From: a virus
Taxonomy: Duplodnaviria > Heunggongvirae > Uroviricota > Caudoviricetes
Strand: one strand, 5' to 3'
IMG/VR virus record: IMGVR_UViG_2974696732_000001
Length of the DNA stretch: 10,779 nucleotides
Shown piece after piece: positions 730 to 10,591 of the stretch. The notes below the pieces were generated by a model. That model was given only the letters and a program-made list of their open reading frames with translations. It was not told the DNA's origin and did not search any database. Each line of letters opens with the position of its first letter. Within the stretch, counting starts at the first letter, position 1. The translations under genes were made by a program, and so were the position numbers.

Positions 730-744
730 TGTCCGGGGCGGACA
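730..744. repeat. 15-bp palindromic box
   Basis: TGTCCG-GGG-CGGACA, perfect match to consensus. Confidence 0.9.
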
Positions 745-752
745 ATTGAAAG

Positions 753-831
753 GTCCCTGGGGAGAGGCCGACCTTCCTCTAATTAAGCCCTCGCCAGAAT
801 GACTGATAGGGCCCCCAGGGACACACTTTAT
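753..831 (-). ncRNA. Candidate structured small RNA (three-way junction)
   Basis: Directly downstream of promoter 838-866. Outer stem GTCCCTGGGG/CCCCAGGGAC (753-762/813-822) encloses hairpins AGAGG/CCTCT (763-780) and GCCCT/AGGGC (787-812). No listed ORF. Ends uncertain. Confidence 0.5.
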
Positions 832-837
832 ACTTCT

Positions 838-866
838 ATGTTAGCAAGGCAGTGTTACCTTGTCAA
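838..866 (-). promoter_or_regulatory. Housekeeping-sigma promoter (ncRNA candidate)
   Basis: TTGACA (861-866) -17- TAACAT (838-843) with extended -10 TGC. Confidence 0.75.
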
Positions 867-878
867 CATCACTTTAGG

Positions 879-1088
879 TCACCATTCCAGCTCGTCTTCC
901 ACGCAGTAGTGGGACACGAACGGAACGACCCATCGGGTATTGAGAAGATGACCCCTCTCCGTCCACAGAGTCAGAGTTGCAGTCTTGGAATCGAACTCGA
1001 TTCCCTTTCCGCCTCCCTGAATGTTATCGAAGATGAGTTCCCTTCGGACTCCCTCTTCCAGAACGATTACGGTTACCCTGTGAGTCAT
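879..1088 (-). CDS. Hypothetical protein, 69 aa
   Basis: RBS AAGGGGAAG overlapping the upstream stop; second gene under promoter 1298-1326. Confidence 0.8.
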   Translation of the reverse strand: MTHRVTVIVLEEGVRRELIFDNIQGGGKGIEFDSKTATLTLWTERGHLLNTRWVVPFVSHYCVEDELEW

Positions 1089-1097
1089 TGCTTCCCC

Positions 1098-1274
1098 TTA
1101 CACCGGCTCGTTCGGAATGATTACCTCGGTGTTGTCAGCGTTTCGGTAAACCGAGCAGTGACCACAAAGAGGTGTCTCAACATCGTTCAGGTTGAAGGTG
1201 CCGATGGCCCTGCGAGCGAAGCAACCTTCGCAGTCTTCGTTCTCTTCCGGACCGAAGGCCATGACCATCGCCAT
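1098..1274 (-). CDS. Small CxxC..CxxC putative zinc-binding protein, 58 aa
   Basis: Hand translation MAMVMAFGPEENEDCEGCFARRAIGTFNLNDVETPLCGHCSVYRNADNTEVIIPNEPV*; RBS GAAAGGGG; promoter just upstream. Not in ORF track. Confidence 0.85.
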   Translation of the reverse strand: MAMVMAFGPEENEDCEGCFARRAIGTFNLNDVETPLCGHCSVYRNADNTEVIIPNEPV

Positions 1275-1297
1275 GTCTTTCCCCTTTCGTTGATACG

Positions 1298-1326
1298 AGT
1301 CTAGCAGACTACAAGGACACTGTCTA
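1298..1326 (-). promoter_or_regulatory. Promoter
   Basis: TAGACA-17-TAGACT, extended -10 TGC. Confidence 0.85.
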
Positions 1327-1340
1327 CCCTGCCGGGCGAT

Positions 1341-1386
1341 TGTCCGGGGCCGCCAAAATCCCCCTAAACCCTTCTGGGCTAGGGGG
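1341..1386. repeat. Box plus hairpin module
   Basis: Box TGTCCG-GGG-CCGCCA (1341-1355); hairpin CCCCTA..TAGGGG (1361-1385). Confidence 0.75.
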
Positions 1387-1404
1387 ACTGGCGTGCCTAC
1401 TGCA

Positions 1405-2418
1405 TTACGCAGCGAGGCTCAGGACCGCCTTACGGATGCGGTTCTTTTCGGCGTTGACCACCGGGTCGAAACCGCTGGCAGCGATGAACAGGTTGTCCAC
1501 GTTGCCACCACGGGGCATCCGGTACCAGTCGATACGCTCGGTCAGAGCGTTCAGGGCACCGGCCATGGTTCCGGCCAGAGATTGAGTGGTCTTCGGACCG
1601 GGGGCCGTGTCGGTGAAGATGCCCATGAGCAGGTCACGCTTCGACTCCCACTTGACCATGCTGCCCTTGACATCCTTCTCGGGCTTGGGGTAGAGAGCCT
1701 GAACGATGCTGTCGAACTGGTCGCGCGTGCACTTGGCAGCGGCCAGCGTGGTCAGCTCACGCTCCAGCTCATCCCCGTACGCGAAGGTGATGTTCAGGGC
1801 CTCACGCGCGGCAGCCATGCGACCCTCGATGGTCTGCGTGTGGCGCATCTTGAACTGCTGCTTCACACCGTTACGGAGTGCGAAGTTCAGCGTGTTCTGA
1901 CACACGACACGGACCGGAGTGACGGACGCCTGAACGGCCACGGAACCATCGTGAGAGGTGTTGACCAGCAGATAGAGCTTGGTCACGTCGTCGTCACCGA
2001 TGACGATGTCACGAGAGATGGACAGAGACCCGAAGACCACACGCCCATCCTTGATGGAACCGGCAGTCTCCCAGGTTCCACCACCCGCGAGGATGCCGTC
2101 ACCGAAGCCGAACAGGTCTTCGTTCTGGACGACCTTGTACCGCTCGCCCACCGTGGCCAGAACGTCGTTCCGACCGGTGAAGGGGTTGGTACGGACCACC
2201 ATGTGCGGCTCGGTCACGAAGTCATAGGAGTCCGAGACCAGACCCATGATTTCCTTGACCGACTCCAGACGGACGTCCCAGCCCTTGAGGTGAGCCAGAG
2301 ACAGCATCTCGTCGGTGGTCAGCTCTCCCTCGAACACGGTTCCGAGGTTGTGCCACGCGGGCTCGTTGCGAGAAGCGAACGCGACCTGACCCTTGGAACC
2401 AATCTCAAGACCGTGCAT
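1405..2418 (-). CDS. DUF932 / TIGR03299 phage-plasmid-like protein, 337 aa
   Basis: Start moved to ATG 2418 (RBS AGGAGG). Family motifs recognised: PAWHNLGTV, LATVGERYKVVQN, WETAGSIKDGRVVF, LLVNTSHDGS, TPVRVVCQNTL, MRHT. Confidence 0.85.
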   Translation of the reverse strand: MHGLEIGSKGQVAFASRNEPAWHNLGTVFEGELTTDEMLSLAHLKGWDVRLESVKEIMGLVSDSYDFVTEPHMVVRTNPFTGRNDVLATVGERYKVVQNEDLFGFGDGILAGGGTWETAGSIKDGRVVFGSLSISRDIVIGDDDVTKLYLLVNTSHDGSVAVQASVTPVRVVCQNTLNFALRNGVKQQFKMRHTQTIEGRMAAAREALNITFAYGDELERELTTLAAAKCTRDQFDSIVQALYPKPEKDVKGSMVKWESKRDLLMGIFTDTAPGPKTTQSLAGTMAGALNALTERIDWYRMPRGGNVDNLFIAASGFDPVVNAEKNRIRKAVLSLAA

Positions 2419-2476
2419 GTTGTGCCTCCTAGGCAGATTGGTGTAAGGGCTGGTTTCCCTGCCCTTCGATGTCTCT

Positions 2477-2506
2477 AGTCTAGCAGTAAGCAAGGGTGGA
2501 TGTCTA
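2477..2506 (-). promoter_or_regulatory. Promoter
   Basis: TAGACA-18-TAGACT, extended -10 TGC. Confidence 0.8.
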
Positions 2507-2525
2507 CCCACACTGCCGGGCTCGA

Positions 2526-2592
2526 TGTCCATAATGTCCGATTTGCCGGTTGGCCGGGCCGGACACACCGAAGCCCCCTCCGGAGAGGGGGC
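2526..2592. repeat. Half-site array plus box plus hairpin module
   Basis: Half-sites at 2526, 2535, 2544; box TGGCCG-GGC-CGGACA (2551-2565); hairpin GCCCCCTC-CGGA-GAGGGGGC (2573-2592). Confidence 0.85.
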
Positions 2593-2613
2593 AGAGTGCG
2601 AGTCTTAGGAGAC

Positions 2614-3060
2614 TCAGTAGGCCGCGTCCAGCAGGGCACGCTCCCAGTCGGCCAGGTACATGCCGTTCAGCTTGGCCACGTAGGCGTCCACGATGTCCTT
2701 GGAGTCCTTGAGACCCAGACCCGTCTTCTCGCGGAGCTGCTTGATGCACTGAATCTTCTTGTGGGAACCGACCTCACGAACGATGTCCTTGACCAGCTCC
2801 TCACCCTGCGCCTTGACGCGCTTCTCGATGTCCCGGAGACGGGTCAGCTCCCAGCTCGTGGGCTGCTCGGCGTCGGCCTTGCCGGAGGCGTAGCCGTTCT
2901 TGTGGCCCTCGTTGTAGCCCTTGTCCTCGGCCACCCGCTGGACCTCGATGTGGTGGTCCATCATGCGACGGGCCAGACGCATCGCCTGGTCGAAGCTCAT
3001 GTGCGGCTGCTCGTCGTGCAGCATGACCAGGTAGACGGCGAGGTTGACGTTGGCGCTCAT
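2614..3060 (-). CDS. Protein with ribosomal bL12 (L7/L12) C-terminal-like segment, 148 aa
   Basis: Residues 101-125 KKIQCIKQLREKTGLGLKDSKDIVD match the bL12 CTD helix pair; RBS GGAG; high-GC3 codons. Confidence 0.8.
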   Translation of the reverse strand: MSANVNLAVYLVMLHDEQPHMSFDQAMRLARRMMDHHIEVQRVAEDKGYNEGHKNGYASGKADAEQPTSWELTRLRDIEKRVKAQGEELVKDIVREVGSHKKIQCIKQLREKTGLGLKDSKDIVDAYVAKLNGMYLADWERALLDAAY

Positions 3061-3106
3061 GTTAGTCTCCGTTTCTCAGGGGGTCCGTCCCCCTTTCGAT
3101 GTTCTA

Positions 3107-3136
3107 AGTCTACACGATGACAGGGACAAGGGTCAA
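3107..3136 (-). promoter_or_regulatory. Promoter
   Basis: TTGACC-18-TAGACT. Confidence 0.85.
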
Positions 3137-3157
3137 CACCGCCTGTGTGCTGATTTT

Positions 3158-3196
3158 TGTCCGGGCCCGACACGGGCCCCAGAAGTCAAGGGCCCG
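3158..3196. repeat. Box plus hairpin module
   Basis: Box TGTCCG-GGC-CCGACA (3158-3172); hairpin CGGGCCC-N10-GGGCCCG (3173-3196). Confidence 0.85.
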
Positions 3197-3202
3197 GTAG
3201 GG

Positions 3203-3538
3203 TCAAGGGTTCGTGTGTCCCCTTTTCAGTAGTATCTGTTCGATGACGAATTTGGAATCCATCACACGATTGAATTCGTCATCTGAGCGACTTTCCGTTC
3301 TTCCTGCCCACGCATTGAGCAGAGAGATGATGAATTGAAACATCACCGCTTGCACAGGCTCAGGGTAGGTAGAAAGGAGGTAGGCGAATGCATGGGGGTC
3401 GAAAGACCGTTTGTCCATTTCATCGATGAGCTTATTCGCCAGACGCTCATACGATGTGGGACGTGGTGTTACGAGTCGCGCACCCTCATACATGTCAGGT
3501 GCGATGATGCTTGTTCGTTTGAAGGGACTACGCGCCAC
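3203..3538 (-). CDS. Hypothetical protein, about 111 aa
   Basis: Probable GTG start at 3538 after GGGGGAGAG, overlapping the stop of 3528..3695; ATG 3493 is an alternative. The listed 3664 start overlaps another gene. Confidence 0.7.
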   Translation of the reverse strand: MARSPFKRTSIIAPDMYEGARLVTPRPTSYERLANKLIDEMDKRSFDPHAFAYLLSTYPEPVQAVMFQFIISLLNAWAGRTESRSDDEFNRVMDSKFVIEQILLKRGHTNP

Positions 3539-3695
3539 CCTCTCCCCCAAAATCCTGCGTTGTACCGTAGCCGTCTGAGACACTGACAGACAGGCCCAGC
3601 ACCTTTGCCATGAACTCAGCCGTAGCTGTGGCAAAGGGCCAGGCACTGTCGTGAGCGTCATCATCAGGCGTGTCGATTTCGATGATGACTGACAT
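3528..3695 (-). CDS. Hypothetical acidic protein, 55 aa
   Basis: Hand translation MSVIIEIDTPDDDAHDSAWPFATATAEFMAKVLGLSVSVSDGYGTTQDFGGEGGA*; RBS TAGGATAGGA next to the upstream stop; fills the operon gap. Not in ORF track. Confidence 0.75.
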   Translation of the reverse strand: MSVIIEIDTPDDDAHDSAWPFATATAEFMAKVLGLSVSVSDGYGTTQDFGGEGGA

Positions 3696-3704
3696 GTTCC
3701 TATC

Positions 3705-4223
3705 CTATCGCGCGTGAACCTCTACGTCCATCCCGAGCACCACCGGGGAGCCACAGCCGCAGTGCGACAGGCTGTAACCGCACTTGCACACCTCGCGCTC
3801 CGAGAGACGGATACGCTTGTTGCCGTACCAAGCGGTGTACTCCGTACGGGGCGAACGGGTCGGGTTGGCGTGCGGACGGACATCCTTGCCCGTCACCTTG
3901 ACGTGGACGCCGGGCGCAGCGGGCTTGACCTCCGGGTTGTCCGCCTTGTAAGCGGCCAGCACCTCAGCGGAGAGACGACCACGGGCCGAAACGGTCATGC
4001 CCTTGGAAGTGGCCCACGCACGGACCGCCTTCGCATCGAACTGTCCGGCCTTGGGAGCGGCCTTGACGACCTTGCGCGGAGTGGCGTCGGTGTCGGTGAA
4101 GACCTTGCCCGACTTCTCAGCCTCCGCGATGGCCTCGTATGCGGCAGCGCTCATCCGGCCACGGGACTCCTTGGCCAGGCCCAGAGAGACAGCGTACGCG
4201 CGACGGGTCATGTTGACGTTCAT
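3705..4223 (-). CDS. lsr2: Lsr2-like DNA-binding protein, 172 aa
   Basis: Residues 62-94 FDAKAVRAWATSKGMTVSARGRLSAEVLAAYKA match the Lsr2 C-terminal RGR (AT-hook-like) domain. A second RGR module lies at residues ~5-35 and a Cys cluster at 146-157. RBS GAGGGAAGG. Confidence 0.85.
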   Translation of the reverse strand: MNVNMTRRAYAVSLGLAKESRGRMSAAAYEAIAEAEKSGKVFTDTDATPRKVVKAAPKAGQFDAKAVRAWATSKGMTVSARGRLSAEVLAAYKADNPEVKPAAPGVHVKVTGKDVRPHANPTRSPRTEYTAWYGNKRIRLSEREVCKCGYSLSHCGCGSPVVLGMDVEVHAR

Positions 4224-4250
4224 GGGGTTTCCTTCCCTCGGTGTGCACTC

Positions 4251-4279
4251 AGTCTATCGGATTGAAGGCGGAGAGGCAA
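4251..4279 (-). promoter_or_regulatory. Inner promoter of lsr2-like operon
   Basis: TTGCCT-17-TAGACT. Confidence 0.65.
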
Positions 4280-4320
4280 GCCCCGGTGCAGAGGTTGGTT
4301 TCCCTCCCCTTCATGTCTCT

Positions 4321-4350
4321 AGTATAGAGGACGTAACAGGGTCATGTCTA
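4321..4350 (-). promoter_or_regulatory. Outer promoter of lsr2-like operon
   Basis: TAGACA-18-TATACT. Confidence 0.8.
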
Positions 4351-4360
4351 CAGCCTAGAA

Positions 4361-4416
4361 TGTCCGTTTTGTCCGATATGCCCGTTGTCCGGGCCCGACA
4401 TGCCCCCGAAGGGGCA
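4361..4416. repeat. Half-site array plus box plus hairpin module
   Basis: Half-sites at 4361, 4370, 4379; box TGTCCG-GGC-CCGACA (4386-4400); hairpin TGCCCC-CGAA-GGGGCA (4401-4416). Confidence 0.9.
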
Positions 4417-4421
4417 AGGGG

Positions 4422-5156
4422 CTAAGCCTTCCTGCGCTTAGGAACCTTAGAGGCGAATCGGATATCCGCCTTACCAAAGATGCAAAGGCCACACGTCACA
4501 CATGCGCCTCCATCCTTAGTGATAAGGGGAATGCGCTTGGCATTCTCAGGGCAGATAGCGCCAGGCTTACCAGTTTCGGTAAGCATGAATTCCTTGCCCT
4601 TTTCGTGAGTCTCGTCAAGGTAGGCAAGACGCACAGACGGATATTCCTTTTGCGTTTCCAGCGCCTTTTCCTTGTTCTCACTGTCTACACTGAGATACAC
4701 AGAGAGATTGGGCAGACCGTAGATGAATCCCACGTACTCGAAAGAGCGCGTGTAAATCCAGAATTGCACATCCGGAAAGGATTCACAGGTCATTTCGATG
4801 GCCTCTGCATAGGTGGCAGAGAAAATGTCACCATCTGCGTGCCAGCGGAATACCTTGGGAACGTTGTGCTTTTCGCATTCCTCTCGGAACTCACTCACCA
4901 TTTCGGCAAGCAAGTAAACCATTCGAATGAGGCTTGCGTCTTTCAGCAATTCCCAATTGTGCAGGGCAAGGTCACGGAATGCCGGGTATTGCTTTTCCAG
5001 CTTACCGGCATAGCAGACCGTCTCACACACGCCGGTCGCGCCAGGGCAGGAATACGCCTTGCCACTGGGCAGGGAGAATGCGTTTTTGATGAGAGACTGA
5101 GTGCCAGCACCGTTTGCACGATTGGCAGTCTTACGGTCGTGCGAGCGCTTGAGCAT
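4422..5156 (-). CDS. GP88-like Cys-rich (putative Fe-S, radical-SAM-like) phage protein, 244 aa
   Basis: Start moved to ATG 5156 (RBS GAAAGGA). Motifs FSLPSGKAYSCPGATGVCETVCYA, FRWHADGDIFS, WIYTRS, NLSVYLSVD, CPEN..ACVTCGLC. Confidence 0.75.
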   Translation of the reverse strand: MLKRSHDRKTANRANGAGTQSLIKNAFSLPSGKAYSCPGATGVCETVCYAGKLEKQYPAFRDLALHNWELLKDASLIRMVYLLAEMVSEFREECEKHNVPKVFRWHADGDIFSATYAEAIEMTCESFPDVQFWIYTRSFEYVGFIYGLPNLSVYLSVDSENKEKALETQKEYPSVRLAYLDETHEKGKEFMLTETGKPGAICPENAKRIPLITKDGGACVTCGLCIFGKADIRFASKVPKRRKA

Positions 5157-5182
5157 GACAGTCCTTTCGTTGACGTAAGTCG

Positions 5183-5211
5183 AGTCTATCAGAGACAGGC
5201 TACGTAAACAA
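5183..5211 (-). promoter_or_regulatory. Promoter
   Basis: TTGTTT-17-TAGACT, extended -10 TGA. Confidence 0.7.
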
Positions 5212-5221
5212 GCCCTCAAAA

Positions 5222-5278
5222 TGTCCGTTTTGCCCGATGTCCGGGGCGGCCAAAGGCCCCCTCCAAACGGAGGGGGCC
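5222..5278. repeat. Half-site array plus box plus hairpin module
   Basis: Half-sites at 5222, 5231; box TGTCCG-GGG-CGGCCA (5238-5252); 10-bp stem GGCCCCCTCC-AAAC-GGAGGGGGCC (5255-5278), TTT after it on the minus strand. Confidence 0.85.
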
Positions 5279-5298
5279 AAGTGGGTTGAACTGGTGAC

Positions 5299-5472
5299 TC
5301 ACTCGGAGTCGGAAGGAGCGAACTCGCCCTGCTCGAACGCGATGTCGAGGAAGCGCTGCGCCTGCTCGCTGTCCAGGTGGGCGATGGCCTCGTTCACGAG
5401 GGTCTGCCGGGTGCTGGCCTTGAGCGGGGTGTTGGCGAAGGAACGGGCGATGGTGTCGAGGACGAGCTGCAT
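5299..5472 (-). CDS. Hypothetical protein, 57 aa
   Basis: Hand translation MQLVLDTIARSFANTPLKASTRQTLVNEAIAHLDSEQAQRFLDIAFEQGEFAPSDSE*; RBS AGAAGGAG; 54 of 57 codons end in G/C. Not in ORF track. Confidence 0.9.
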   Translation of the reverse strand: MQLVLDTIARSFANTPLKASTRQTLVNEAIAHLDSEQAQRFLDIAFEQGEFAPSDSE

Positions 5473-5518
5473 GGTGATTCTCCTTCTCTAGGGGGTGTTT
5501 CCCCCTTTCGATACCCTA

Positions 5519-5548
5519 AGTCTACACGACGCCTAGGGCTGTGTGCAA
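5519..5548 (-). promoter_or_regulatory. Promoter
   Basis: TTGCAC-18-TAGACT. Confidence 0.8.
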
Positions 5549-5569
5549 GCCTGAATCTGAGGTGATTTT

Positions 5570-5603
5570 TGTCCGGCCCGGACACAGACCCCCGAAGGGG
5601 CCC
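5570..5603. repeat. Box plus hairpin module
   Basis: Perfect box TGTCCG-GCC-CGGACA (5570-5584); hairpin CCCC-CGAA-GGGG (5589-5600), extended by G-U pairs only on the minus strand. Confidence 0.9.
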
Positions 5604-5607
5604 GGTG

Positions 5608-5667
5608 TCAGAAGAGAATGAGCAGAATGAACAGGACTGCGATGAGCCACACATACCCATCACGCAT
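5608..5667 (-). CDS. 19-aa hydrophobic micropeptide (single TM-like)
   Basis: MRDGYVWLIAVLFILLILF*; RBS GGAGGT inside the upstream ORF; start overlaps upstream stop; stop just before the hairpin module. Confidence 0.6.
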   Translation of the reverse strand: MRDGYVWLIAVLFILLILF

Positions 5668-5737
5668 TCTCGCACACCTCCCGGTACCAAGCGTAGTGCG
5701 TGTAGGGGTAGAAGTGAAGCCATTCCACGAAGTACAT
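5660..5737 (-). CDS. 25-aa aromatic-rich micropeptide
   Basis: MYFVEWLHFYPYTHYAWYREVCENA*; RBS AGGAGT overlapping the TAG of the upstream gene. Confidence 0.6.
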   Translation of the reverse strand: MYFVEWLHFYPYTHYAWYREVCENA

Positions 5738-5744
5738 GACACTC

Positions 5745-6044
5745 CTAGAAGAGTTCGGGTCCGGACTCGCTGTCTTCCGTCCAGTCCTCAGTATACTCGA
5801 TGAACTCGACGTTCAGCAACCACGCGATAAGAACTCGGTGGTGTCCGTTGAAAACGGTGTTCGACTCCACCATGTAGATGATGGGGTCAAGGATGCCCTT
5901 GGAGCAAGATTCAACAAACTCAGGGTTTCCCTCAAAGAGGTCGTTGAACTTCTCTTCGAACATCTGCCAGGTGGTGTGACCCTTGGCCTCAGCATCATTG
6001 AAGATAGCCGACTCAATCAGCTTCGCAACAGATACCTTGGCCAT
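5745..6044 (-). CDS. ParB/Srx N-terminal-like domain protein, 99 aa
   Basis: FVESCSKGILDPIIYMVESNTVFNGHHRVLIAWLLN fits the ParBc pattern G..xPI...[DN]GHHR..A..L; no HTH; RBS AAGGAGG. Confidence 0.65.
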   Translation of the reverse strand: MAKVSVAKLIESAIFNDAEAKGHTTWQMFEEKFNDLFEGNPEFVESCSKGILDPIIYMVESNTVFNGHHRVLIAWLLNVEFIEYTEDWTEDSESGPELF

Positions 6045-6070
6045 GTCGCCCTCCTTGGCTTGATAGGTCT

Positions 6071-6099
6071 AGTCTACATGAGTACAAGGGCTGTGTCTA
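6071..6099 (-). promoter_or_regulatory. Promoter
   Basis: TAGACA-17-TAGACT. Confidence 0.85.
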
Positions 6100-6113
6100 G
6101 TGCCGGGCCAAAT

Positions 6114-6152
6114 TGTCCGGGGCGGCCAAATGGGGCCCCGGAGGGCCCCATT
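6114..6152. repeat. Box plus hairpin module
   Basis: Box TGTCCG-GGG-CGGCCA (6114-6128); 10-bp stem AATGGGGCCC-CGGA-GGGCCCCATT (6129-6152). Confidence 0.9.
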
Positions 6153-6155
6153 GGG

Positions 6156-6428
6156 TCAGTCTTCGCTGGTGTCCTTCTGGCTCACCAGCTTCGCACGGCC
6201 GAGCAGAGAGGCGTCGGCCTCCTTCCACTTCTTGACCGGCTTGCCGACTCGCACACGGGGGAACCGAGCGATGATGGCACGCGCACGGGTCTCGTCCGCC
6301 TCCAGGATGTCGAACCGCTGGAAGGGGGCACGGGTGGCGATGGGGCCGAACTCGATGTCCACCCCCTGGACAATCATGGCCACGCGGAGGGAGAGGGCGT
6401 CACGGACGGGAACGATACCGGCAATCAT
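6156..6428 (-). CDS. Hypothetical protein, 90 aa
   Basis: RBS AGGAGT; high-GC3 codons; stop adjacent to the hairpin module. Confidence 0.85.
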   Translation of the reverse strand: MIAGIVPVRDALSLRVAMIVQGVDIEFGPIATRAPFQRFDILEADETRARAIIARFPRVRVGKPVKKWKEADASLLGRAKLVSQKDTSED

Positions 6429-6491
6429 GTGAACTCCTGAGAGTCGAAGTAAGCTGGGGTATTCAGTTATCAGAGACTTTGGCAGGAAGGG

Positions 6492-6513
6492 AAAAACCTC
6501 ACGTTGCGAGGCC
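6492..6513 (-). terminator. Terminator or attenuator-like hairpin in the leader of 6156..6428
   Basis: Minus strand GGCCTCGC-AAC-GTGAGGTT followed by a U run (AAAAA at 6492-6496); G-U pairs work only on the minus strand. Confidence 0.5.
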
Positions 6514-6542
6514 CTGTGGCCTGTCCCCTTGTGCTTAGCTAG

Positions 6543-6572
6543 AGTCTATCAGCCTGACCTAGTTGCAGTCAA
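6543..6572 (-). promoter_or_regulatory. Promoter overlapping the 3' end of 6559..6741
   Basis: TTGACT-18-TAGACT, extended -10 TGA; no box upstream. Confidence 0.75.
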
Positions 6573-6741
6573 CCAGGTATTCGGGCTCGTCGTCCTCGGA
6601 GACCGTCCAGATGTCGGCCAGCCAACCCTTACGGATGACACCGGCCGTCTCGAACTTGTGCGGCTCAGCGGACTCACGAACCGCATCTGCGTACTCCTCT
6701 TCGGAGATGATGCTGTAACCCTCGGGAATCTCGAACGTCAT
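6559..6741 (-). CDS. Hypothetical acidic protein, 60 aa
   Basis: RBS GAGAGGAG; own promoter upstream. Confidence 0.85.
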   Translation of the reverse strand: MTFEIPEGYSIISEEEYADAVRESAEPHKFETAGVIRKGWLADIWTVSEDDEPEYLVDCN

Positions 6742-6786
6742 GACCGCTCCTCTCGTTGGGAGGCTTCCCTCCCTCTCGATGTTCTA

Positions 6787-6815
6787 AGTCTACATGACCG
6801 ATGGGACAGGCGCAA
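6787..6815 (-). promoter_or_regulatory. Promoter
   Basis: TTGCGC-17-TAGACT. Confidence 0.75.
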
Positions 6816-6843
6816 CAACCAATATTCGTTAGTCTGCCTAAGT

Positions 6844-6872
6844 TGTCCGGGGCCGACAGGCCCCGAAGGGCC
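6844..6872. repeat. Box plus hairpin module
   Basis: Box TGTCCG-GGG-CCGACA (6844-6858); hairpin GGCCC-CGAA-GGGCC (6859-6872). Confidence 0.9.
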
Positions 6873-6877
6873 CTTTG

Positions 6878-7033
6878 TCAGTCTCCCATGTCGTCCAGAT
6901 GAGCATCCGGAGCGGGCTCGAACTCAAGGAAGGTGTCTTCGAAAATCACCATCCATGCGTAGCCCTCACGATTGTCCGGATTGCACTTGCCACGGTGCAT
7001 GTCACCCATGGCAGCGCCACATTCGATGCACAT
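6878..7033 (-). CDS. Small CxxC-containing acidic protein, 51 aa
   Basis: Hand translation MCIECGAAMGDMHRGKCNPDNREGYAWMVIFEDTFLEFEPAPDAHLDDMGD*; TGATG coupling to the upstream gene. Not in ORF track. Confidence 0.8.
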   Translation of the reverse strand: MCIECGAAMGDMHRGKCNPDNREGYAWMVIFEDTFLEFEPAPDAHLDDMGD

Positions 7034-7257
7034 CAGCGCCCCAGGTTGTAGAGAGAGGCAACCAGCATCTCAACTCGGTTGACTCGAATCGAAAGGCGGG
7101 AGCCGTTCGCGTCGGTGAGGGTGAACAGCTTCATGTCGTTGTGAACCGCTTCGGTCCATGCCAGATTGATGGCATCGGGCGTGGTGTCCTTGATGTAGGC
7201 CACCAGCGTCTTGTCACGGTCGTGGAAGTACAGCTCAACACGAACATCGTTCAGCAT
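7033..7257 (-). CDS. Hypothetical protein, 74 aa
   Basis: RBS GAGAGGA; own promoter. Confidence 0.85.
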   Translation of the reverse strand: MLNDVRVELYFHDRDKTLVAYIKDTTPDAINLAWTEAVHNDMKLFTLTDANGSRLSIRVNRVEMLVASLYNLGR

Positions 7258-7302
7258 GGTGCATCCTCTCTTCCGGGAGCTTTTCTCCCTTTCGATGCTC
7301 TA

Positions 7303-7331
7303 ACTCTACAGCATGTGGGAGGCAGATACAA
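7303..7331 (-). promoter_or_regulatory. Promoter
   Basis: TTGTAT-17-TAGAGT. Confidence 0.7.
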
Positions 7332-7345
7332 CCCCAATTTGAAAG

Positions 7346-7378
7346 TGTCCGGGCCCGACACGGGCCCCGAAGGGCCCG
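7346..7378. repeat. Box plus hairpin module
   Basis: Box TGTCCG-GGC-CCGACA (7346-7360); hairpin CGGGCCC-CGAA-GGGCCCG (7361-7378). Confidence 0.9.
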
Positions 7379-7389
7379 GCGGAAAGGTG

Positions 7390-7674
7390 TTACTTCTTGG
7401 CCTTGGTGCGACGGTTGCTGTGGTTGCCGTTCATGAGGGCGGTGAAGTCCAGCATGATGTTCTGCTTGAAGTTGGTCGCTCCGTGGAACTTGCCGTCCTG
7501 GTCACGGATGACGATGCGGACCTCGGTGGAGTCGCTGCCCGGAGTGGTCTTCCAGGTCTCCAGCCGGATGCTGTAGACGGACTTGGAACCCTTGACCTTG
7601 AAGCCCTCGGAGATGGTGACGGAGGAGACGATGTTGTGGTTGACGTCGGTCTTCTTGGCGAGGGTAACGGCCAT
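7390..7674 (-). CDS. Hypothetical basic protein, 94 aa
   Basis: RBS GAGGAG; all 11 Lys codons are AAG; basic C-terminal tail RRTKAKK. Confidence 0.9.
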   Translation of the reverse strand: MAVTLAKKTDVNHNIVSSVTISEGFKVKGSKSVYSIRLETWKTTPGSDSTEVRIVIRDQDGKFHGATNFKQNIMLDFTALMNGNHSNRRTKAKK

Positions 7675-7728
7675 TTGAAGCTCCTCAGAGTCTCGCTTGG
7701 GGGTTCCTTCCCCCTTGCTGATAGCTAA

Positions 7729-7758
7729 AGTCTACACGACCCAAGGGACATCGCGCAA
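7729..7758 (-). promoter_or_regulatory. Promoter
   Basis: TTGCGC-18-TAGACT. Confidence 0.75.
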
Positions 7759-7770
7759 CCCCTGAATTTA

Positions 7771-7814
7771 TGTCCTTTTTGTCCGTCCGGGCCGGACAGG
7801 GCCCCGGAGGGCCC
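7771..7814. repeat. Half-site array plus box plus hairpin module
   Basis: Half-sites at 7771, 7780; box CGTCCG-GGC-CGGACA (7784-7798); hairpin GGGCCC-CGGA-GGGCCC (7799-7814). Confidence 0.9.
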
Positions 7815-7819
7815 GTCCA

Positions 7820-8161
7820 TCACTCGGAGGGGAAAGACTCAGCGAAGAACTTGGCACGCTCCCTCTTGGCACGGCTGTGAGCACCGTCACGGCTTGCGTA
7901 CTCCTGGAACTCCGACACGGTGTCGATGGTGAGATGTCCGTTTTCGTCCAGCTTGGCCACACGAACGGTGTAGAGTCGGGGAGACATGTCGTCGAAGCGC
8001 TCGGAGGAGACGAAGAACATCGTCTTCCCCTGCAAGTCGCTGTAGCACATCTCGGAGATGCGGGAGTTGAAGAAGCGCAGGGTGGCCCGGTCGAAGAAGT
8101 GGTTGTTCTGGTCCTTGGCGATGGCCTTGACGTCTTCCAGAGAGAACATCTGAGTGCGCAT
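7820..8161 (-). CDS. Conserved-looking phage hypothetical protein, 113 aa
   Basis: Start moved to ATG 8161 (RBS GAGAGGA). Motifs HFFDRATLRFFNSRI, FFVSSE, RLYTVR resemble a widespread phage family; family ID not certain. Confidence 0.85.
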   Translation of the reverse strand: MRTQMFSLEDVKAIAKDQNNHFFDRATLRFFNSRISEMCYSDLQGKTMFFVSSERFDDMSPRLYTVRVAKLDENGHLTIDTVSEFQEYASRDGAHSRAKRERAKFFAESFPSE

Positions 8162-8192
8162 TGTGTGGGTTCCTCTCCCTCGGTGTAAGTAG

Positions 8193-8222
8193 AGTCTAAC
8201 ACAGCTCAAGGACAGGCCACAA
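8193..8222 (-). promoter_or_regulatory. Promoter
   Basis: TTGTGG-18-TAGACT, extended -10 TGT. Confidence 0.7.
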
Positions 8223-8247
8223 CACCTACCGGGCCTTTTTCTGAAAG

Positions 8248-8278
8248 TGTCCGGCCCCGACAGGGGCCCGAAGGCCCC
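8248..8278. repeat. Box plus hairpin module
   Basis: Box TGTCCG-GCC-CCGACA (8248-8262); hairpin GGGGCC-CGAA-GGCCCC (8263-8278). Confidence 0.9.
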
Positions 8279-8283
8279 TTCTG

Positions 8284-8607
8284 TCAGGTGAGCTGAGCCA
8301 GGAGAGAACTGATTTCCTGACGGAGTTCGGACTGAGGCCGGTAGCCTCGCTCCGCCTTCAACTGACGCTCGAAGTAGGCGCGAAGTTCGGTCTTGTTGTA
8401 CGGACCGTACGCCTGGTCAGCGTAGTCGATGTCCTCGAACGGAATGGGGCAGGAGCAACCGGAGTCGCTTGCCACGTAGTACCGCCCTCGGGCCTCCTTC
8501 CACACTCGCGTCTCGTTGAACTGGTAGGATTCGTGGTCCCAGTCGAACCCACCGACGTAGGTCAGGCTGTCCAGCGAAATACGCTCGGGCTTCGAAAGGT
8601 CGGTCAT
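8284..8607 (-). CDS. Actinophage hypothetical protein with DSGCSCP motif, 107 aa
   Basis: RBS GAGGAGG overlapping the upstream TGA; YYVASDSGCSCPIPFED motif recalled from actinophage proteins of unknown function. Confidence 0.85.
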   Translation of the reverse strand: MTDLSKPERISLDSLTYVGGFDWDHESYQFNETRVWKEARGRYYVASDSGCSCPIPFEDIDYADQAYGPYNKTELRAYFERQLKAERGYRPQSELRQEISSLLAQLT

Positions 8608-8616
8608 GGTTCCTCC

Positions 8617-8760
8617 TCAGATGTCTTTACGCTGAACTTTATCACACTTGGAGCACTGGCGCACCTGAATCAGCGCCTTCCAGGTACCGAGCTTGGGGAA
8701 GAGAGGGGAGTCGAACGTTCCCACCATCTGCTTCCAGTTGGACCACTTGTGGAAACACAT
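8617..8760 (-). CDS. Small putative zinc-binding protein, 47 aa
   Basis: Start moved to ATG 8760 (RBS GGAGG): MCFHKW...QVRQCSKCDKVQRKDI. Confidence 0.8.
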   Translation of the reverse strand: MCFHKWSNWKQMVGTFDSPLFPKLGTWKALIQVRQCSKCDKVQRKDI

Positions 8761-8785
8761 CCCGTCCTCCGTTTTCGTTAGCTCT

Positions 8786-8814
8786 AGTCTACAGGGCCAA
8801 TTTTTGAGTCGCAA
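8786..8814 (-). promoter_or_regulatory. Promoter
   Basis: TTGCGA-17-TAGACT. Confidence 0.75.
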
Positions 8815-8820
8815 CCCCAA

Positions 8821-8874
8821 AGTCCAGATTTTTAGTCGCAGATTTTTAGTCCGGGGCGGACAGGCCCGAAGGCC
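8821..8874. repeat. Tandem repeat plus box plus hairpin module
   Basis: AGTCCAGATTTTT / AGTCGCAGATTTTT (8821-8847); box AGTCCG-GGG-CGGACA (8848-8862); hairpin GGCC-CGAA-GGCC (8863-8874). Confidence 0.85.
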
Positions 8875-8881
8875 CTTCCGC

Positions 8882-9196
8882 TCACTCCCAAGGCTTGTAG
8901 TCACTCCAGTCCGCACCCTCGCGCGGCTCGATGAGGATTTCGATGGTGTCGCCCAGACGGTGATTCACGCTGTACAGAGAACGGGAAGAACCCTGGTAGC
9001 GACGCTGCGCCTTGGCCCACTTGACCAGCTTCTCAGCCTGCTTGGCCGAACGACAGGGCCATGCCTCGATGCACAGACCGTAGTTGAACCACCATCCGCC
9101 CTCTTCGCTGCCTCCCCATGCACGCTGCAATTCGTAGACGTTCACCCAGTGCTTGTTCCGACGACGCTGGCCCATACGGAGTGACTTCTTCGCCAT
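8882..9196 (-). CDS. Phage hypothetical protein with GGSEEGGWW motif, 104 aa
   Basis: RBS AAGGAGG; own promoter. Confidence 0.85.
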   Translation of the reverse strand: MAKKSLRMGQRRRNKHWVNVYELQRAWGGSEEGGWWFNYGLCIEAWPCRSAKQAEKLVKWAKAQRRYQGSSRSLYSVNHRLGDTIEILIEPREGADWSDYKPWE

Positions 9197-9219
9197 GTTT
9201 CCTCCTTGGTGATGACCTA

Positions 9220-9248
9220 AGTCTAACAGACGCCTAGGACAGACTCAA
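9220..9248 (-). promoter_or_regulatory. Promoter
   Basis: TTGAGT-17-TAGACT, extended -10 TGT. Confidence 0.8.
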
Positions 9249-9281
9249 CATGCTTGTAAGGATATTTTTTCATTTAGGGAG

Positions 9282-9296
9282 TGTCCCGCCCGGACA
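9282..9296. repeat. 15-bp palindromic box
   Basis: TGTCCC-GCC-CGGACA, one mismatch. Confidence 0.85.
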
Positions 9297-9310
9297 AAAA
9301 ATTCGCCCAC

Positions 9311-9371
9311 AAATTCACCCCTCTTTTCTAAGGAAATCTAGGCGAAAATCCTTGAAAAGAGGGGTGAATTT
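9311..9371. repeat. Long inverted repeat (terminator or cruciform)
   Basis: AAATTCACCCCTCTTTTC (9311-9328) and its exact reverse complement (9354-9371), extended inward by AAGGA/TCCTT after a 1-nt bulge; 14-nt loop. Confidence 0.85.
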
Positions 9372-9394
9372 TTTCTATGAAGTTTTTTCGAAGG

Positions 9395-9607
9395 TCAGAT
9401 GGCGACTTTTTCGTCTTTTCCTGCCTCACAAAGGCAGTATTTCGAATGTGTCGCCTCGATTGCGGTAAAACCGCTTTCCTCGTAGCGTGCGAGGAGATTC
9501 GCCAGAAGGGACGAGTTGAATACCGAAGTTTTCGATTTCAGCCCGTCCCTTTCCAGCAAAAGGGACATACTGTGGAATTGTACCGGTTTCGGCCTTTTCC
9601 TGAACAT
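9395..9607 (-). CDS. Hypothetical protein, 70 aa
   Basis: RBS AAAAGGGG; AT-richer codons (all 7 Lys are AAA). Confidence 0.65.
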   Translation of the reverse strand: MFRKRPKPVQFHSMSLLLERDGLKSKTSVFNSSLLANLLARYEESGFTAIEATHSKYCLCEAGKDEKVAI

Positions 9608-9625
9608 GAATGCCCCTTTTAGGTG

Positions 9626-9769
9626 TTACGCCAGTTCGGCCATGTGCGGGTAGGCGTCCCAGTCGAAGCCGTCCACACGGTCCGCATCCCGAACGTCGGA
9701 AACGGGAACCGTGATGGTGGTGAAGACACCCGCGTCAGCGGCCTGCTCAAGAAGGTCACGAAGGTCCAT
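9626..9769 (-). CDS. Hypothetical acidic protein, 47 aa
   Basis: Hand translation MDLRDLLEQAADAGVFTTITVPVSDVRDADRVDGFDWDAYPHMAELA*; RBS AGAGGA; own promoter. Not in ORF track. Confidence 0.85.
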   Translation of the reverse strand: MDLRDLLEQAADAGVFTTITVPVSDVRDADRVDGFDWDAYPHMAELA

Positions 9770-9801
9770 GGTGTGTACTTCCTCTCGCTTGGTGTAGTAC
9801 C

Positions 9802-9830
9802 AGTCTACACAAGGGGTAGGGCAGATGCAA
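9802..9830 (-). promoter_or_regulatory. First leftward promoter
   Basis: TTGCAT-17-TAGACT. Confidence 0.8.
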
Positions 9831-9884
9831 GCCCAAAGTCTCCGGGAATTTTTCGTGCCTATCGTACACGCGCGGGGGAAATGT

Positions 9885-10031
9885 GGGGTATGTACGTAAC
9901 GCCCCTTAAAAGGGCCTATATCCTAGATGTCCCATATGTACCCTATGCCCTATATGGGTGGGTATGGGATGGTATGCCCTATATGTACCCCTATGTATGG
10001 GTATGTACCCAATGTCCGTTTTGCCCCATAT
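9885..10031. repeat. Degenerate GGGTATG / CCCTATATG repeat tract
   Basis: TATGCCCTATATG at 9944 and 9973; GGGTATGTAC at 9886 and 9999; further GGGTATG and CCCATAT copies. Confidence 0.75.
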
Positions 10032-10048
10032 GTCGTCCGGGGCGGACA
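10013..10048. repeat. Half-site array plus box
   Basis: Half-sites at 10013, 10022, 10031; box CGTCCG-GGG-CGGACA (10034-10048). Confidence 0.85.
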
Positions 10049-10092
10049 GGTAACGCTTAGGTAAAGCTTCCAAGATTCTTGCTGAATTGGGG

Positions 10093-10120
10093 TTGCATGG
10101 GTGTCCGGGGCGGGTATGCT
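10093..10120 (+). promoter_or_regulatory. Rightward promoter with an embedded box
   Basis: TTGCAT-16-TATGCT; box TGTCCG-GGG-CGGGTA (10102-10116) fills the spacer and overlaps the -10. The 16-bp spacer is suboptimal. Confidence 0.55.
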
Positions 10121-10153: not shown

Positions 10154-10591
10154 ATGAACACCACCACCGCTCACCAGTGCAAGTACCAGAATGAAACCCA
10201 GGTCAACGCCCGTATCCGTAGGCAGGTGCTCGCTACGGTGCTGTACCTGGCCACCCTTACGGGTGACAGTGACGGTGCTACGTGGGCCAATTGTGTGGGG
10301 TGTGGGGAGCGTGCCCACGTGGGAGGTACCCCTAGGGCTATGGACACGTTCAACCTGGGGCACGTGCTGGCAGACGCTGAGGGTGGGATGTACTGCCCTT
10401 GCAACCTGCTCCCCCTGTGCAGGCAGTGCAACGCTGACATGGGTAAGGAGACCCTTACTGATGTGCTTGTTCCCCGTTACGACAATCGGGAAATGTGGAA
10501 CGGTAAGGTTCTGCCCGACCCTGGCACGGTGGCCGCTAAGCCTGAGAGCAACCGTGGACGTGCCCGCTGGAACGCCCCTGTGACCGTCTGA
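10154..10591 (+). CDS. HNH endonuclease-like protein, 145 aa
   Basis: CVGC...GHVLADAEGG...NLLPLCRQCNADMG matches the zinc-binding HNH pattern; start moved to ATG 10154 (RBS AAGGGAG / AGGGA). Confidence 0.85.
   Translation: MNTTTAHQCKYQNETQVNARIRRQVLATVLYLATLTGDSDGATWANCVGCGERAHVGGTPRAMDTFNLGHVLADAEGGMYCPCNLLPLCRQCNADMGKETLTDVLVPRYDNREMWNGKVLPDPGTVAAKPESNRGRARWNAPVTV

Follow-up and report, generated by a model that had tools for sequence, protein, structure and literature searches.

The stoperators of cluster A mycobacteriophages such as L5 and Bxb1 are asymmetric sites of 13-14 bp, distributed genome-wide and oriented with transcription, to which the lysogenic repressor binds to block elongation. 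In phage phi29, the dimeric protein p4 binds inverted repeats upstream of early promoters and represses from upstream through contact with RNA polymerase. In SPO1 and T5, the terminal repeats hold host-takeover modules of small early genes with many host-type promoters and terminators, while promoter-early stem-loop (PeSL) cassettes of the T4 type were reportedly described by Arbiol and colleagues in 2010. The closest published case to the element considered here is the 17-bp repeat of cluster O mycobacteriophages, TGTTCGGNNNCCGAACA, a palindrome with more than 30 near-invariant copies; its authors predict a dimeric binding protein and argue that the sites do not control initiation (Cresawn et al. 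2015, PMC4351075). Here we analyze a dyad-symmetric box, TGTCCG-N3-CGGACA, that recurs in a stretch of 10,779 nucleotides of viral DNA (Caudoviricetes; IMG/VR record IMGVR_UViG_2974696732_000001), the whole of which is referred to as the window. On the basis of sequence comparisons, we put at about 50% the probability that this box is the recognition site of a phage-encoded homodimeric regulator acting on the early promoters of a terminal repeat.

The window is 99.0% identical along its entire length to Bartholomune, a Streptomyces phage, in which the match lies at 121099-131879 of the record and is repeated at the left end. Because the match recurs at both ends of that record, the window is identified as the direct terminal repeat (DTR), of about 10.8 kb, of a lytic phage of cluster BE1 (genus Samistivirus, family Stanwilliamsviridae). 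A further 82 Streptomyces phages of cluster BE match it at lower identity. The Bartholomune repeat is annotated with 21 leftward genes and one rightward HNH endonuclease gene, and no repressor or integrase is annotated in the phage genome. Genome announcements liken the BE repeat in size to those of T5 and SPO1 and report 20-25 small genes in it, annotated without function; they mention neither repeats nor promoters (PMC5764925). In the BE phage literature, we found no paper describing the box.

The window was searched for TGTCCG-N3-CGGACA with up to two mismatches, and the chance level was taken from shuffled sequence. This yielded 17 matches, compared with a mean of 0.72 and a maximum of 3 after shuffling. 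Sixteen of them have a centre of G and C only and lie between genes as annotated in Bartholomune; the other, at 2202, carries two mismatches and the centre GCT within the DUF932 gene and looks like a chance match. An earlier reading of the sequence, hereafter the original prediction, had described 16 copies with zero to two mismatches and G/C-only centres, all intergenic, and every one of them was recovered at its predicted start. Perfect palindromes stand at 730..744, in the left non-coding end of the repeat, and at 5570..5584. The copy at 1341..1355 has two mismatches, and its distal half on the coding strand, TGGCGG, pairs with CGCCA upstream of the hairpin described below. Additional half-sites accompany the boxes at 4386..4400 (direct CGGACA copies on the promoter side, at 4361-4375), 5238..5252 (5222-5227) and 7784..7798 (overlapping, 7780-7785). 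The pattern search also placed boxes at 2551..2565, 3158..3172, 6114..6128, 6844..6858, 7346..7360, 8248..8262, 8848..8862 and 9282..9296. The remaining two are the box at 10034..10048, which lies in the divergent region, precedes the rightward promoter by 44 bp and has a half-site at 10013-10018, and that at 10102..10116, within the spacer of the rightward HNH promoter TTGCAT-16-TATGCT, a position that looks repressor-like.

Good copies of the box are confined in Bartholomune (131.9 kb) to the two copies of the repeat and one site just past the boundary, and its 110-kb unique region holds only about five chance-like matches with two mismatches. The box set is over-represented and dyad-symmetric, with 6-3-6 symmetry across five lineage versions. 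An extra box-like copy (two mismatches) occupies 10839-10853 of the Bartholomune record, about 60 bp past the repeat boundary and downstream of the HNH gene. The corresponding position in Jay2Jay, at 11496, is taken by a perfect copy.

The boxes are positioned with respect to the promoters that follow them. The early promoters have the host-type form TTGnnn, a spacer of 17-18 bp and TAGACT; the Streptomyces vegetative consensus is TTGACN and TAGAPuT, and the promoters of the window come near to it. From the box centre to the first base of the -10 element, on the minus strand, the distance is 45 bp for the promoters at 1298..1326 (TAGACA-17-TAGACT), 6071..6099 (TAGACA-17-TAGACT) and 7303..7331 (TTGTAT-17-TAGAGT). 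It is 53 bp for those at 3107..3136 (TTGACC-18-TAGACT) and 5519..5547 (-10 TAGACT), 57 bp for those at 5183..5211 (TTGTTT-17-TAGACT), 7729..7758 (TTGCGC-18-TAGACT) and 8193..8222 (TTGTGG-18-TAGACT), and 59 bp for that at 6787..6815 (TTGCGC-17-TAGACT). Larger distances of 64 bp (8786..8814, TTGCGA-17-TAGACT; 9220..9248, TTGAGT-17-TAGACT), 67 bp (4321..4350, TAGACA-18-TATACT) and 76 bp (2477..2506, TAGACA-18-TAGACT) complete the set. The claim that a box lies upstream of most early promoters is borne out by these 13 leftward promoters at phased distances; a further copy sits in the spacer of the single rightward one.

The predicted gaps between box and -35 element, from 14 to 44 bp, were reproduced as well. 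Their proposed phasing by about one helical turn was weak in the window alone (Rayleigh p ~0.03-0.08) but became clear once nine related repeats were added. The enlarged set, consisting of the window, five more repeats with its type of box (T-type) and four with another type (G-type), provides 114 distances from box centre to -10 in 10 genomes. These fall in bands of 33-37, 42-46, 51-59, 61-67, 75-77 and 84-85 bp that are separated by empty zones, and their periodogram peaks at 10.5 bp (Rbar 0.58). In two repeats of a further type (C-type), a distance of 53 bp is fixed in 23 of 24 cassettes, and the band pattern recurs across box types. We conclude that the helical phasing of boxes to promoters is real.

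Each early cassette comprises, in the direction of transcription, a promoter, a hairpin in the 5' untranslated region (UTR), one to three small genes, a GC hairpin and a box. On the coding (minus) strand, a gap that bears a box runs from stop codon through GC hairpin, box, spacer, promoter and 5' UTR hairpin to ribosome-binding site, and the spacer of 14-44 bp between box and -35 is richer in A and T. The loop of the GC hairpin is often UUCG or UCCG, and its stem is kept while the sequence differs between gaps; one example with a UUCG loop, at 7362..7377 (minus strand), ends the upstream cassette 1 nt from a box. Hairpin and box are 0-3 nt apart in 12 of 13 cassettes. A promoter is present in the gap at 6429-6558, where hairpin and box are both absent, and in related phages the hairpins that lack a following promoter carry no box (Coruscant 4002-4203; StarPlatinum 2827-2883 and 10372-10413). 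Since gaps with only a hairpin or only a promoter are without it, the box marks the junction of a terminator-like hairpin with the next promoter. The copy at 10102, being inside the HNH promoter spacer, is an exception to this layout.

Such a layout could also arise if the box were part of a composite terminator or insulator, acting as a second RNA hairpin, as an extension of the lower stem or as a bound roadblock that lets hairpins without a U-tract terminate. Stoperators of the cluster A mycobacteriophages act in a comparable way. The close apposition of hairpin and box points in this direction, as do the restriction of boxes to places where a hairpin is present and the absence of a T-tail from every minus-strand hairpin of the window. 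In minimum-free-energy folds, moreover, the distal half often pairs 5' of the hairpin (GACA with UGUC at boxes 8248, 6844 and 5570; CGCCA with UGGCG at box 1341), and in Mildred21, Jay2Jay and Coruscant it sometimes forms the 3' arm of the hairpin. We nevertheless consider a terminator element unlikely. Phasing to the next promoter is not expected of one, and hairpins without a following promoter would not be expected to go without a box.

The evolution of the box sequence bears on the same question. A collection of 69 distinct intergenic boxes was assembled from six T-type repeats (the window, Jay2Jay, Mildred21, Peebs, Tribute and Warpy), and 15 of these are perfect 6-3-6 palindromes. At the pair formed by positions 5 and 11, C-G occurs 40 times, G-G 20 times and C-C nine times, and the compensated G-C does not occur. 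This lack of compensation between the halves argues for a protein DNA site rather than a selected stem, and against a terminator element. The better conserved half is the promoter-proximal CGGACA (47 of 69, compared with 30 of 69 for the distal TGTCCG), which reads CCGGACA on the coding strand and would have no role in a terminator stem. Folded alone, the boxes give -1.6 to -6.5 kcal/mol, with many as weak as -1.6 to -2.8, and in distant relatives the slot is filled by CCCCCGGGGG, which is incapable of folding alone. With no T-tail, no compensation and weak folds, the box does not resemble an intrinsic terminator; it is the neighbouring GC hairpin that is the stem-loop.

On these comparisons, the box appears to behave as a protein-binding site whose two halves differ, one being a strong half-site and the other a weaker one, and the distal half may be under two constraints at once, as part of the site and as a pairing partner in the hairpin. 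The proposal that one dimeric factor binds the box was strengthened to the extent that the box behaves as the DNA site of a dimeric protein, although no binding protein was identified. Direct CGGACA half-sites between box and -35 in six spacers, with 33 copies compared with 7.9 expected, could extend binding toward the promoter. Short direct-repeat arrays of CGGACA(T), with copies 7-9 bp apart, are seen at the two ends of the repeat and, in some gaps, in the stretch from box to -35. In the window, such half-sites lie at 4361-4375, 5222-5227, 2535-2540, 7780-7785, 10013-10018 and 668-682, and others are present in Coruscant (L002) at 1-868 and 10901-11292. As these arrays are also found in phages with other box sequences, they may represent a second, separate family of sites.

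Related phages carry several different boxes, all in the slot that the T-type box occupies in the window. The T-type box of the window is present in multiple intergenic copies per repeat in Jay2Jay, Mildred21, Peebs, Tribute and contigs L074 and L080. The sequence GGCCG-CCC-CGGCC has 13-15 exact core copies per repeat in StarPlatinum, Quaran19, Wofford and Yaboi (Karimacvirus), and none outside the repeat in the two whole genomes searched (StarPlatinum and Quaran19). Coruscant and contig L076 have TGGCGCC-S-GGCGCCA (15 per repeat in Coruscant, none elsewhere), Mandalore and contig L077 have a box like GTGCGCC-N-GGCGCAC (15 core copies in one block in Mandalore), and contig L075 has about nine copies of TTGCGG-NNN-CCGCAA. 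In the distant contigs L078 and L079, CCCCC(N)GGGGG follows the hairpin and a second palindrome, TCTCA-N5-TGAGA, is found beside the -35 element. Box type is uniform within each genome, and the types searched genome-wide are confined to the repeat.

A switch of box type can be followed in Bmoc, which is a sister of Mildred21 (terminase 96%, DUF932 91%). Every box of this phage, together with Riptide, is of the GGCCGCCCCGGCC type, and no T-type box is present. The promoters and 5' UTRs of Bmoc align base for base with those of T-type phages. When orthologous gaps are compared, the core CCG-SSS-CGG is kept and most of the difference is in the outer triplets, with GG(G)...CC(C) in place of TGT...ACA.

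T-type and G-type phages share isolation strains, S. griseus ATCC 10137 and S. lividans JI 1326, which means that no host protein of fixed specificity can read every box type. Lineage-specific boxes on shared hosts are most simply accounted for by a phage-encoded reader that co-evolves with its sites. The original prediction had placed the factor either elsewhere in the phage or in the host, and the second of these sources is now unlikely. A reader from Streptomyces, possibly the activator PafBC in the case of the T-type box, would explain how early genes can be expressed before any phage protein is made, and the T-type half-sites TGTCGG and TGTCCG resemble tGTCgg, the PafB contact at the start of the PafBC motif. 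We judge it highly improbable, given that five unrelated box sequences occupy the slot, that T-type and G-type phages share host strains and that no -10 element stands at PafBC spacing after any box. The mycobacterial PafBC motif is tGTCgg(N10)tA(N3)T, in which GTC is read by the helix-turn-helix (HTH) of PafB (PMC8635444).

PafBC spacing is found instead with GTC triplets inside the promoters, which are distinct from the box. GTC lies exactly 12 nt upstream of the -10 element in 6 of 15 early promoters of the window, including 3107-3136, 6787-6815, 7729-7758, 8193-8222, 9220-9248 and 1298-1326 (minus strand), and almost never at other offsets. The same position holds GTC in 5-8 of 14-17 promoters in Jay2Jay, Mildred21, Peebs, Bmoc, Coruscant and L076. 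Besides the -35, the early promoters may have a putative -26 element, one that could tie them to the host DNA-damage activator.

The reader was sought by comparing all Bmoc open reading frames (ORFs) with four T-type, two G-type and two C-type genomes, with a reverse comparison from Bartholomune. Three genes tracked box type rather than backbone: the HNH gene of the repeat, MazG and, less cleanly, that of a hypothetical protein of 92-122 amino acids (aa) near 105 kb. The last of these follows box type only in part, with Mildred21 deviating, and is not a likely reader. Nor is MazG, an enzyme showing recent transfer (Bmoc 97-99% identical to G-type versus 80-83% to T-type). The Lsr2-like protein, with two RGR hooks and a Cys-rich tail, was set aside as it has no lineage-specific region. 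ParB-like proteins of 99-117 aa, considered with a parS/ParB arrangement in mind, were likewise rejected: the Bmoc copies are 81-89% identical to those of T-type phages despite the switch of box. The ParB-like copy in the window has no Pfam match.

The HNH gene (10154..10591, plus strand; 145 aa) is a candidate for the reader, with a pattern of similarity that tracks box type. It is the only gene of the Bmoc repeat that is closer to G-type phages (69-71% identity, compared with 58-61% to T-type). T-type copies are 70-90% identical to one another, those of Coruscant and Mandalore are 87% identical, and the clusters of HNH sequences correspond to the T, G and C box types. The residues His70, Asn84 and Asn93 are invariant, and the family occurs only in BE-like phages and metagenome contigs. 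A confident structural model (pLDDT 81) retrieved only generic HNH domains in a fold search, all with E above 0.02, and the sequence had no significant match among solved structures. The HNH protein as box reader is a lead and not a result; it is unproven, coming from one switch event, a linked gene and a small signal at the nucleotide level.

These data also raise the question of whether the box is instead a target at which this HNH protein nicks, cuts or binds, promoting recombination of the repeat, exchange of cassettes or conversion of the box set. The HNH gene is the sole gene of the repeat, and one of about three genome-wide, to follow box type over backbone, and its clusters, its three invariant residues and the box in its own promoter are in line with this idea. 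Homology blocks between repeats also often stop at the box. PacI and Hpy99I are examples of small HNH restriction enzymes that recognize palindromes as homodimers. An HNH target is nonetheless quite unlikely in our estimation. The co-variation amounts to a single switch event, in the Bmoc clade, of a gene physically linked to the boxes, the preference at the nucleotide level is only a few percent, and the fold search gave generic HNH matches only. In addition, sequencing reports give only genome ends, with no internal read pile-ups, and a nuclease target leaves the phasing to promoters unexplained. The pairing of HNH and box type on the added contigs is biased, because those contigs were found through HNH.

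A shade more doubtful still is the possibility that boxes and HNH form a matched pair, in which the 15-bp palindrome would be recognized by an HNH dimer that nicks, cuts or occupies it. If true, the pair could drive recombination between the terminal repeats and shuffle early cassettes between co-infecting phages. It could also convert whole box sets, as in the Bmoc clade, and would then be an integron- or homing-like system in the host-takeover region.

The box might, alternatively, have no reader at all and be the boundary repeat of mobile promoter-gene-terminator cassettes, kept uniform by recombination and gene conversion, a suggestion already made for T4-type PeSL cassettes. The cassette layout fits this explanation, genes are gained and lost next to boundaries between relatives, and the ends of blastn blocks pile up at the box. 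These block ends do not separate the hypotheses, however, because the variable spacer after the box gives the same pattern. We regard a readerless box as very unlikely: gene conversion does not by itself produce dyad symmetry in each of five different versions of the sequence, the 10.5-bp phasing is left unexplained, and so is the uniformity of boxes beside diverse hairpins.

The sequence comparisons show the set of sites, its confinement to the repeat, the phasing, the absence of stem-like co-variation and the lineage-specific box types; protein binding, contact with RNA polymerase and the sign of the effect are inferences. In the mechanism favored here, a phage-encoded dimer would bind the box at each cassette boundary, on the side that faces the promoter. 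The box centre would lie about 45, 55, 65 or 76 bp upstream of the next -10 and on one face of the helix, which places it at roughly -57, -67, -77 or -88 from the start site. Contact of the bound protein with RNA polymerase, in the simplest case with the alpha C-terminal domain, could set the output of some 13 early promoters together from the phased upstream sites. The dimer would also occupy the rightward HNH promoter, which has one more box in its core. We consider it somewhat more likely that the early promoters are shut off or damped together once the early phase is over than that they are activated, as they look strong and must fire before any phage protein exists; phi29 p4 acts on its early promoters in this manner.

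Several points weigh against such a regulator. No DNA-binding reader was identified among the proteins screened. No HTH protein was detected in the window by Pfam or PHROGs, in agreement with the original prediction that no obvious HTH regulator is encoded there. The only annotated HTH protein of the phage, gp90, was rejected since its HTH is identical in Mildred21 and Bmoc, which differ in their boxes; WhiB is 93-99% conserved and the same in these two phages, and was also discarded. With a gap of 0-3 nt, the box is more tightly tied to the terminator hairpin than to the promoter, and its distal half is often the base of the terminator stem or the 3' arm of a hairpin. Promoters without an upstream hairpin also lack a box, which means that the box is not needed for promoter function as such. 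Regarding the phasing, p-values are inflated because orthologous sites in different genomes are not independent, and the constraint is loose, with broad bands and sub-peaks 4 bp apart within that at 51-59 bp. Gene conversion may also help to keep the copies uniform within a genome.

Further features were noted in the control regions. A second lineage-specific palindrome lies between box and -35 in several phages: TAGATG-N7-CATCTA in Coruscant (L002), TCTCA-N5-TGAGA in L078 and L079, and AAGATCTT in Karimacvirus (gaps of StarPlatinum, L010). The control region may be bipartite, composed of the box and this second palindrome. Short hairpins in the 5' UTR, between -10 and ribosome-binding site, were seen in many cassettes, for example on the minus strand at 3070-3100, 5480-5515, 6745-6780, 7262-7295 and 7690-7725. 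Each consists of a G-run, 4-5 nt and a C-run, with a stem sequence that varies by cassette while pairing is kept, and they probably serve as 5' stabilisers of the early mRNAs.

Between the rightmost leftward promoter and the box at 10034, the segment 9790-10030 is dense in GGGTACATA-like and CATA/TATG repeats, and runs of the same kind are conserved in Peebs, Bmoc, StarPlatinum, Coruscant and L077. Toward the left end, TTAGTTAGGTTAGCTAAG at 700-729 directly adjoins the box at 730 and is conserved in Jay2Jay, Peebs and Mildred21; we take it to resemble the actinobacterial IdeR/DmdR iron box. Of all promoters in the window, the one closest to consensus, TTGACA-17-TAACAT at 838-866 (minus strand), has no ORF behind it. 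It is followed by a strongly paired stretch at 745-835 (minus strand) that ends at the box at 730.

Domains detected in the repeat with Pfam and PHROGs are DUF932, an L7/L12 C-terminus-like domain, an Lsr2 DNA-binding domain, GP88, DUF7447 and DUF7574; Rfam families gave no match within the window. The early protein encoded at 2614-3060 (minus strand) has the domain that resembles the C-terminus of ribosomal protein L7/L12 (Pfam E = 9e-8). All related repeats encode a protein with this domain, and host translation may be its target.

The phages of cluster BE are large and lytic, infect Streptomyces and have not had their gene regulation studied. Through the boxes, about 13 to 15 promoters are grouped into a compact early regulon, which makes it possible to test how a lytic actinophage times its host-takeover genes. 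The predicted regulator would have changed its DNA specificity at least five times with the architecture and position of its sites kept. The contrast between Mildred21 and Bmoc narrows the search for it, and pairs of site and reader could possibly provide orthogonal control elements for Streptomyces engineering.

The known systems each share part of this arrangement. As with stoperators, one short site is repeated many times in the short intergenic gaps of a phage and the sequence differs between subclusters, and stoperators are read by one phage protein. In contrast, the BE box is dyad-symmetric, restricted to the repeat and carried by a lytic phage, and it does not have the characteristics of a stoperator. 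PeSL cassettes resemble the BE repeat in their small early genes, each with its own early promoter, in the stem-loop at the boundary and in the shuffling of units between relatives; they differ in having no separate lineage-specific dyad box between stem-loop and promoter. The sites of phi29 p4 are likewise upstream inverted repeats where helical position matters. They are few, however, and p4 needs p6, whereas the BE repeat has about 16 sites, and there is no similarity in sequence or protein. For the terminal repeats of SPO1 and T5, we know of no comparable uniform dyad box. Their likeness to the BE repeat lies in a terminal repeat of 10-13 kb filled with early genes (size comparison in PMC5764925). 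The cluster O repeat is also found in actinobacteriophages without sign of lysogeny, and it shares with the BE box a variable 3-bp centre, TGT...ACA ends and the presence of encoded ParB-like proteins, but its sites are genome-wide, a third of them in coding sequence and most not near promoters (PMC4351075). Those of the BE phages are all intergenic, confined to the repeat, adjacent to a terminator and phased to promoters, and what reads them bears on what reads dyad repeats of this kind, including those of the cluster O mycobacteriophages.

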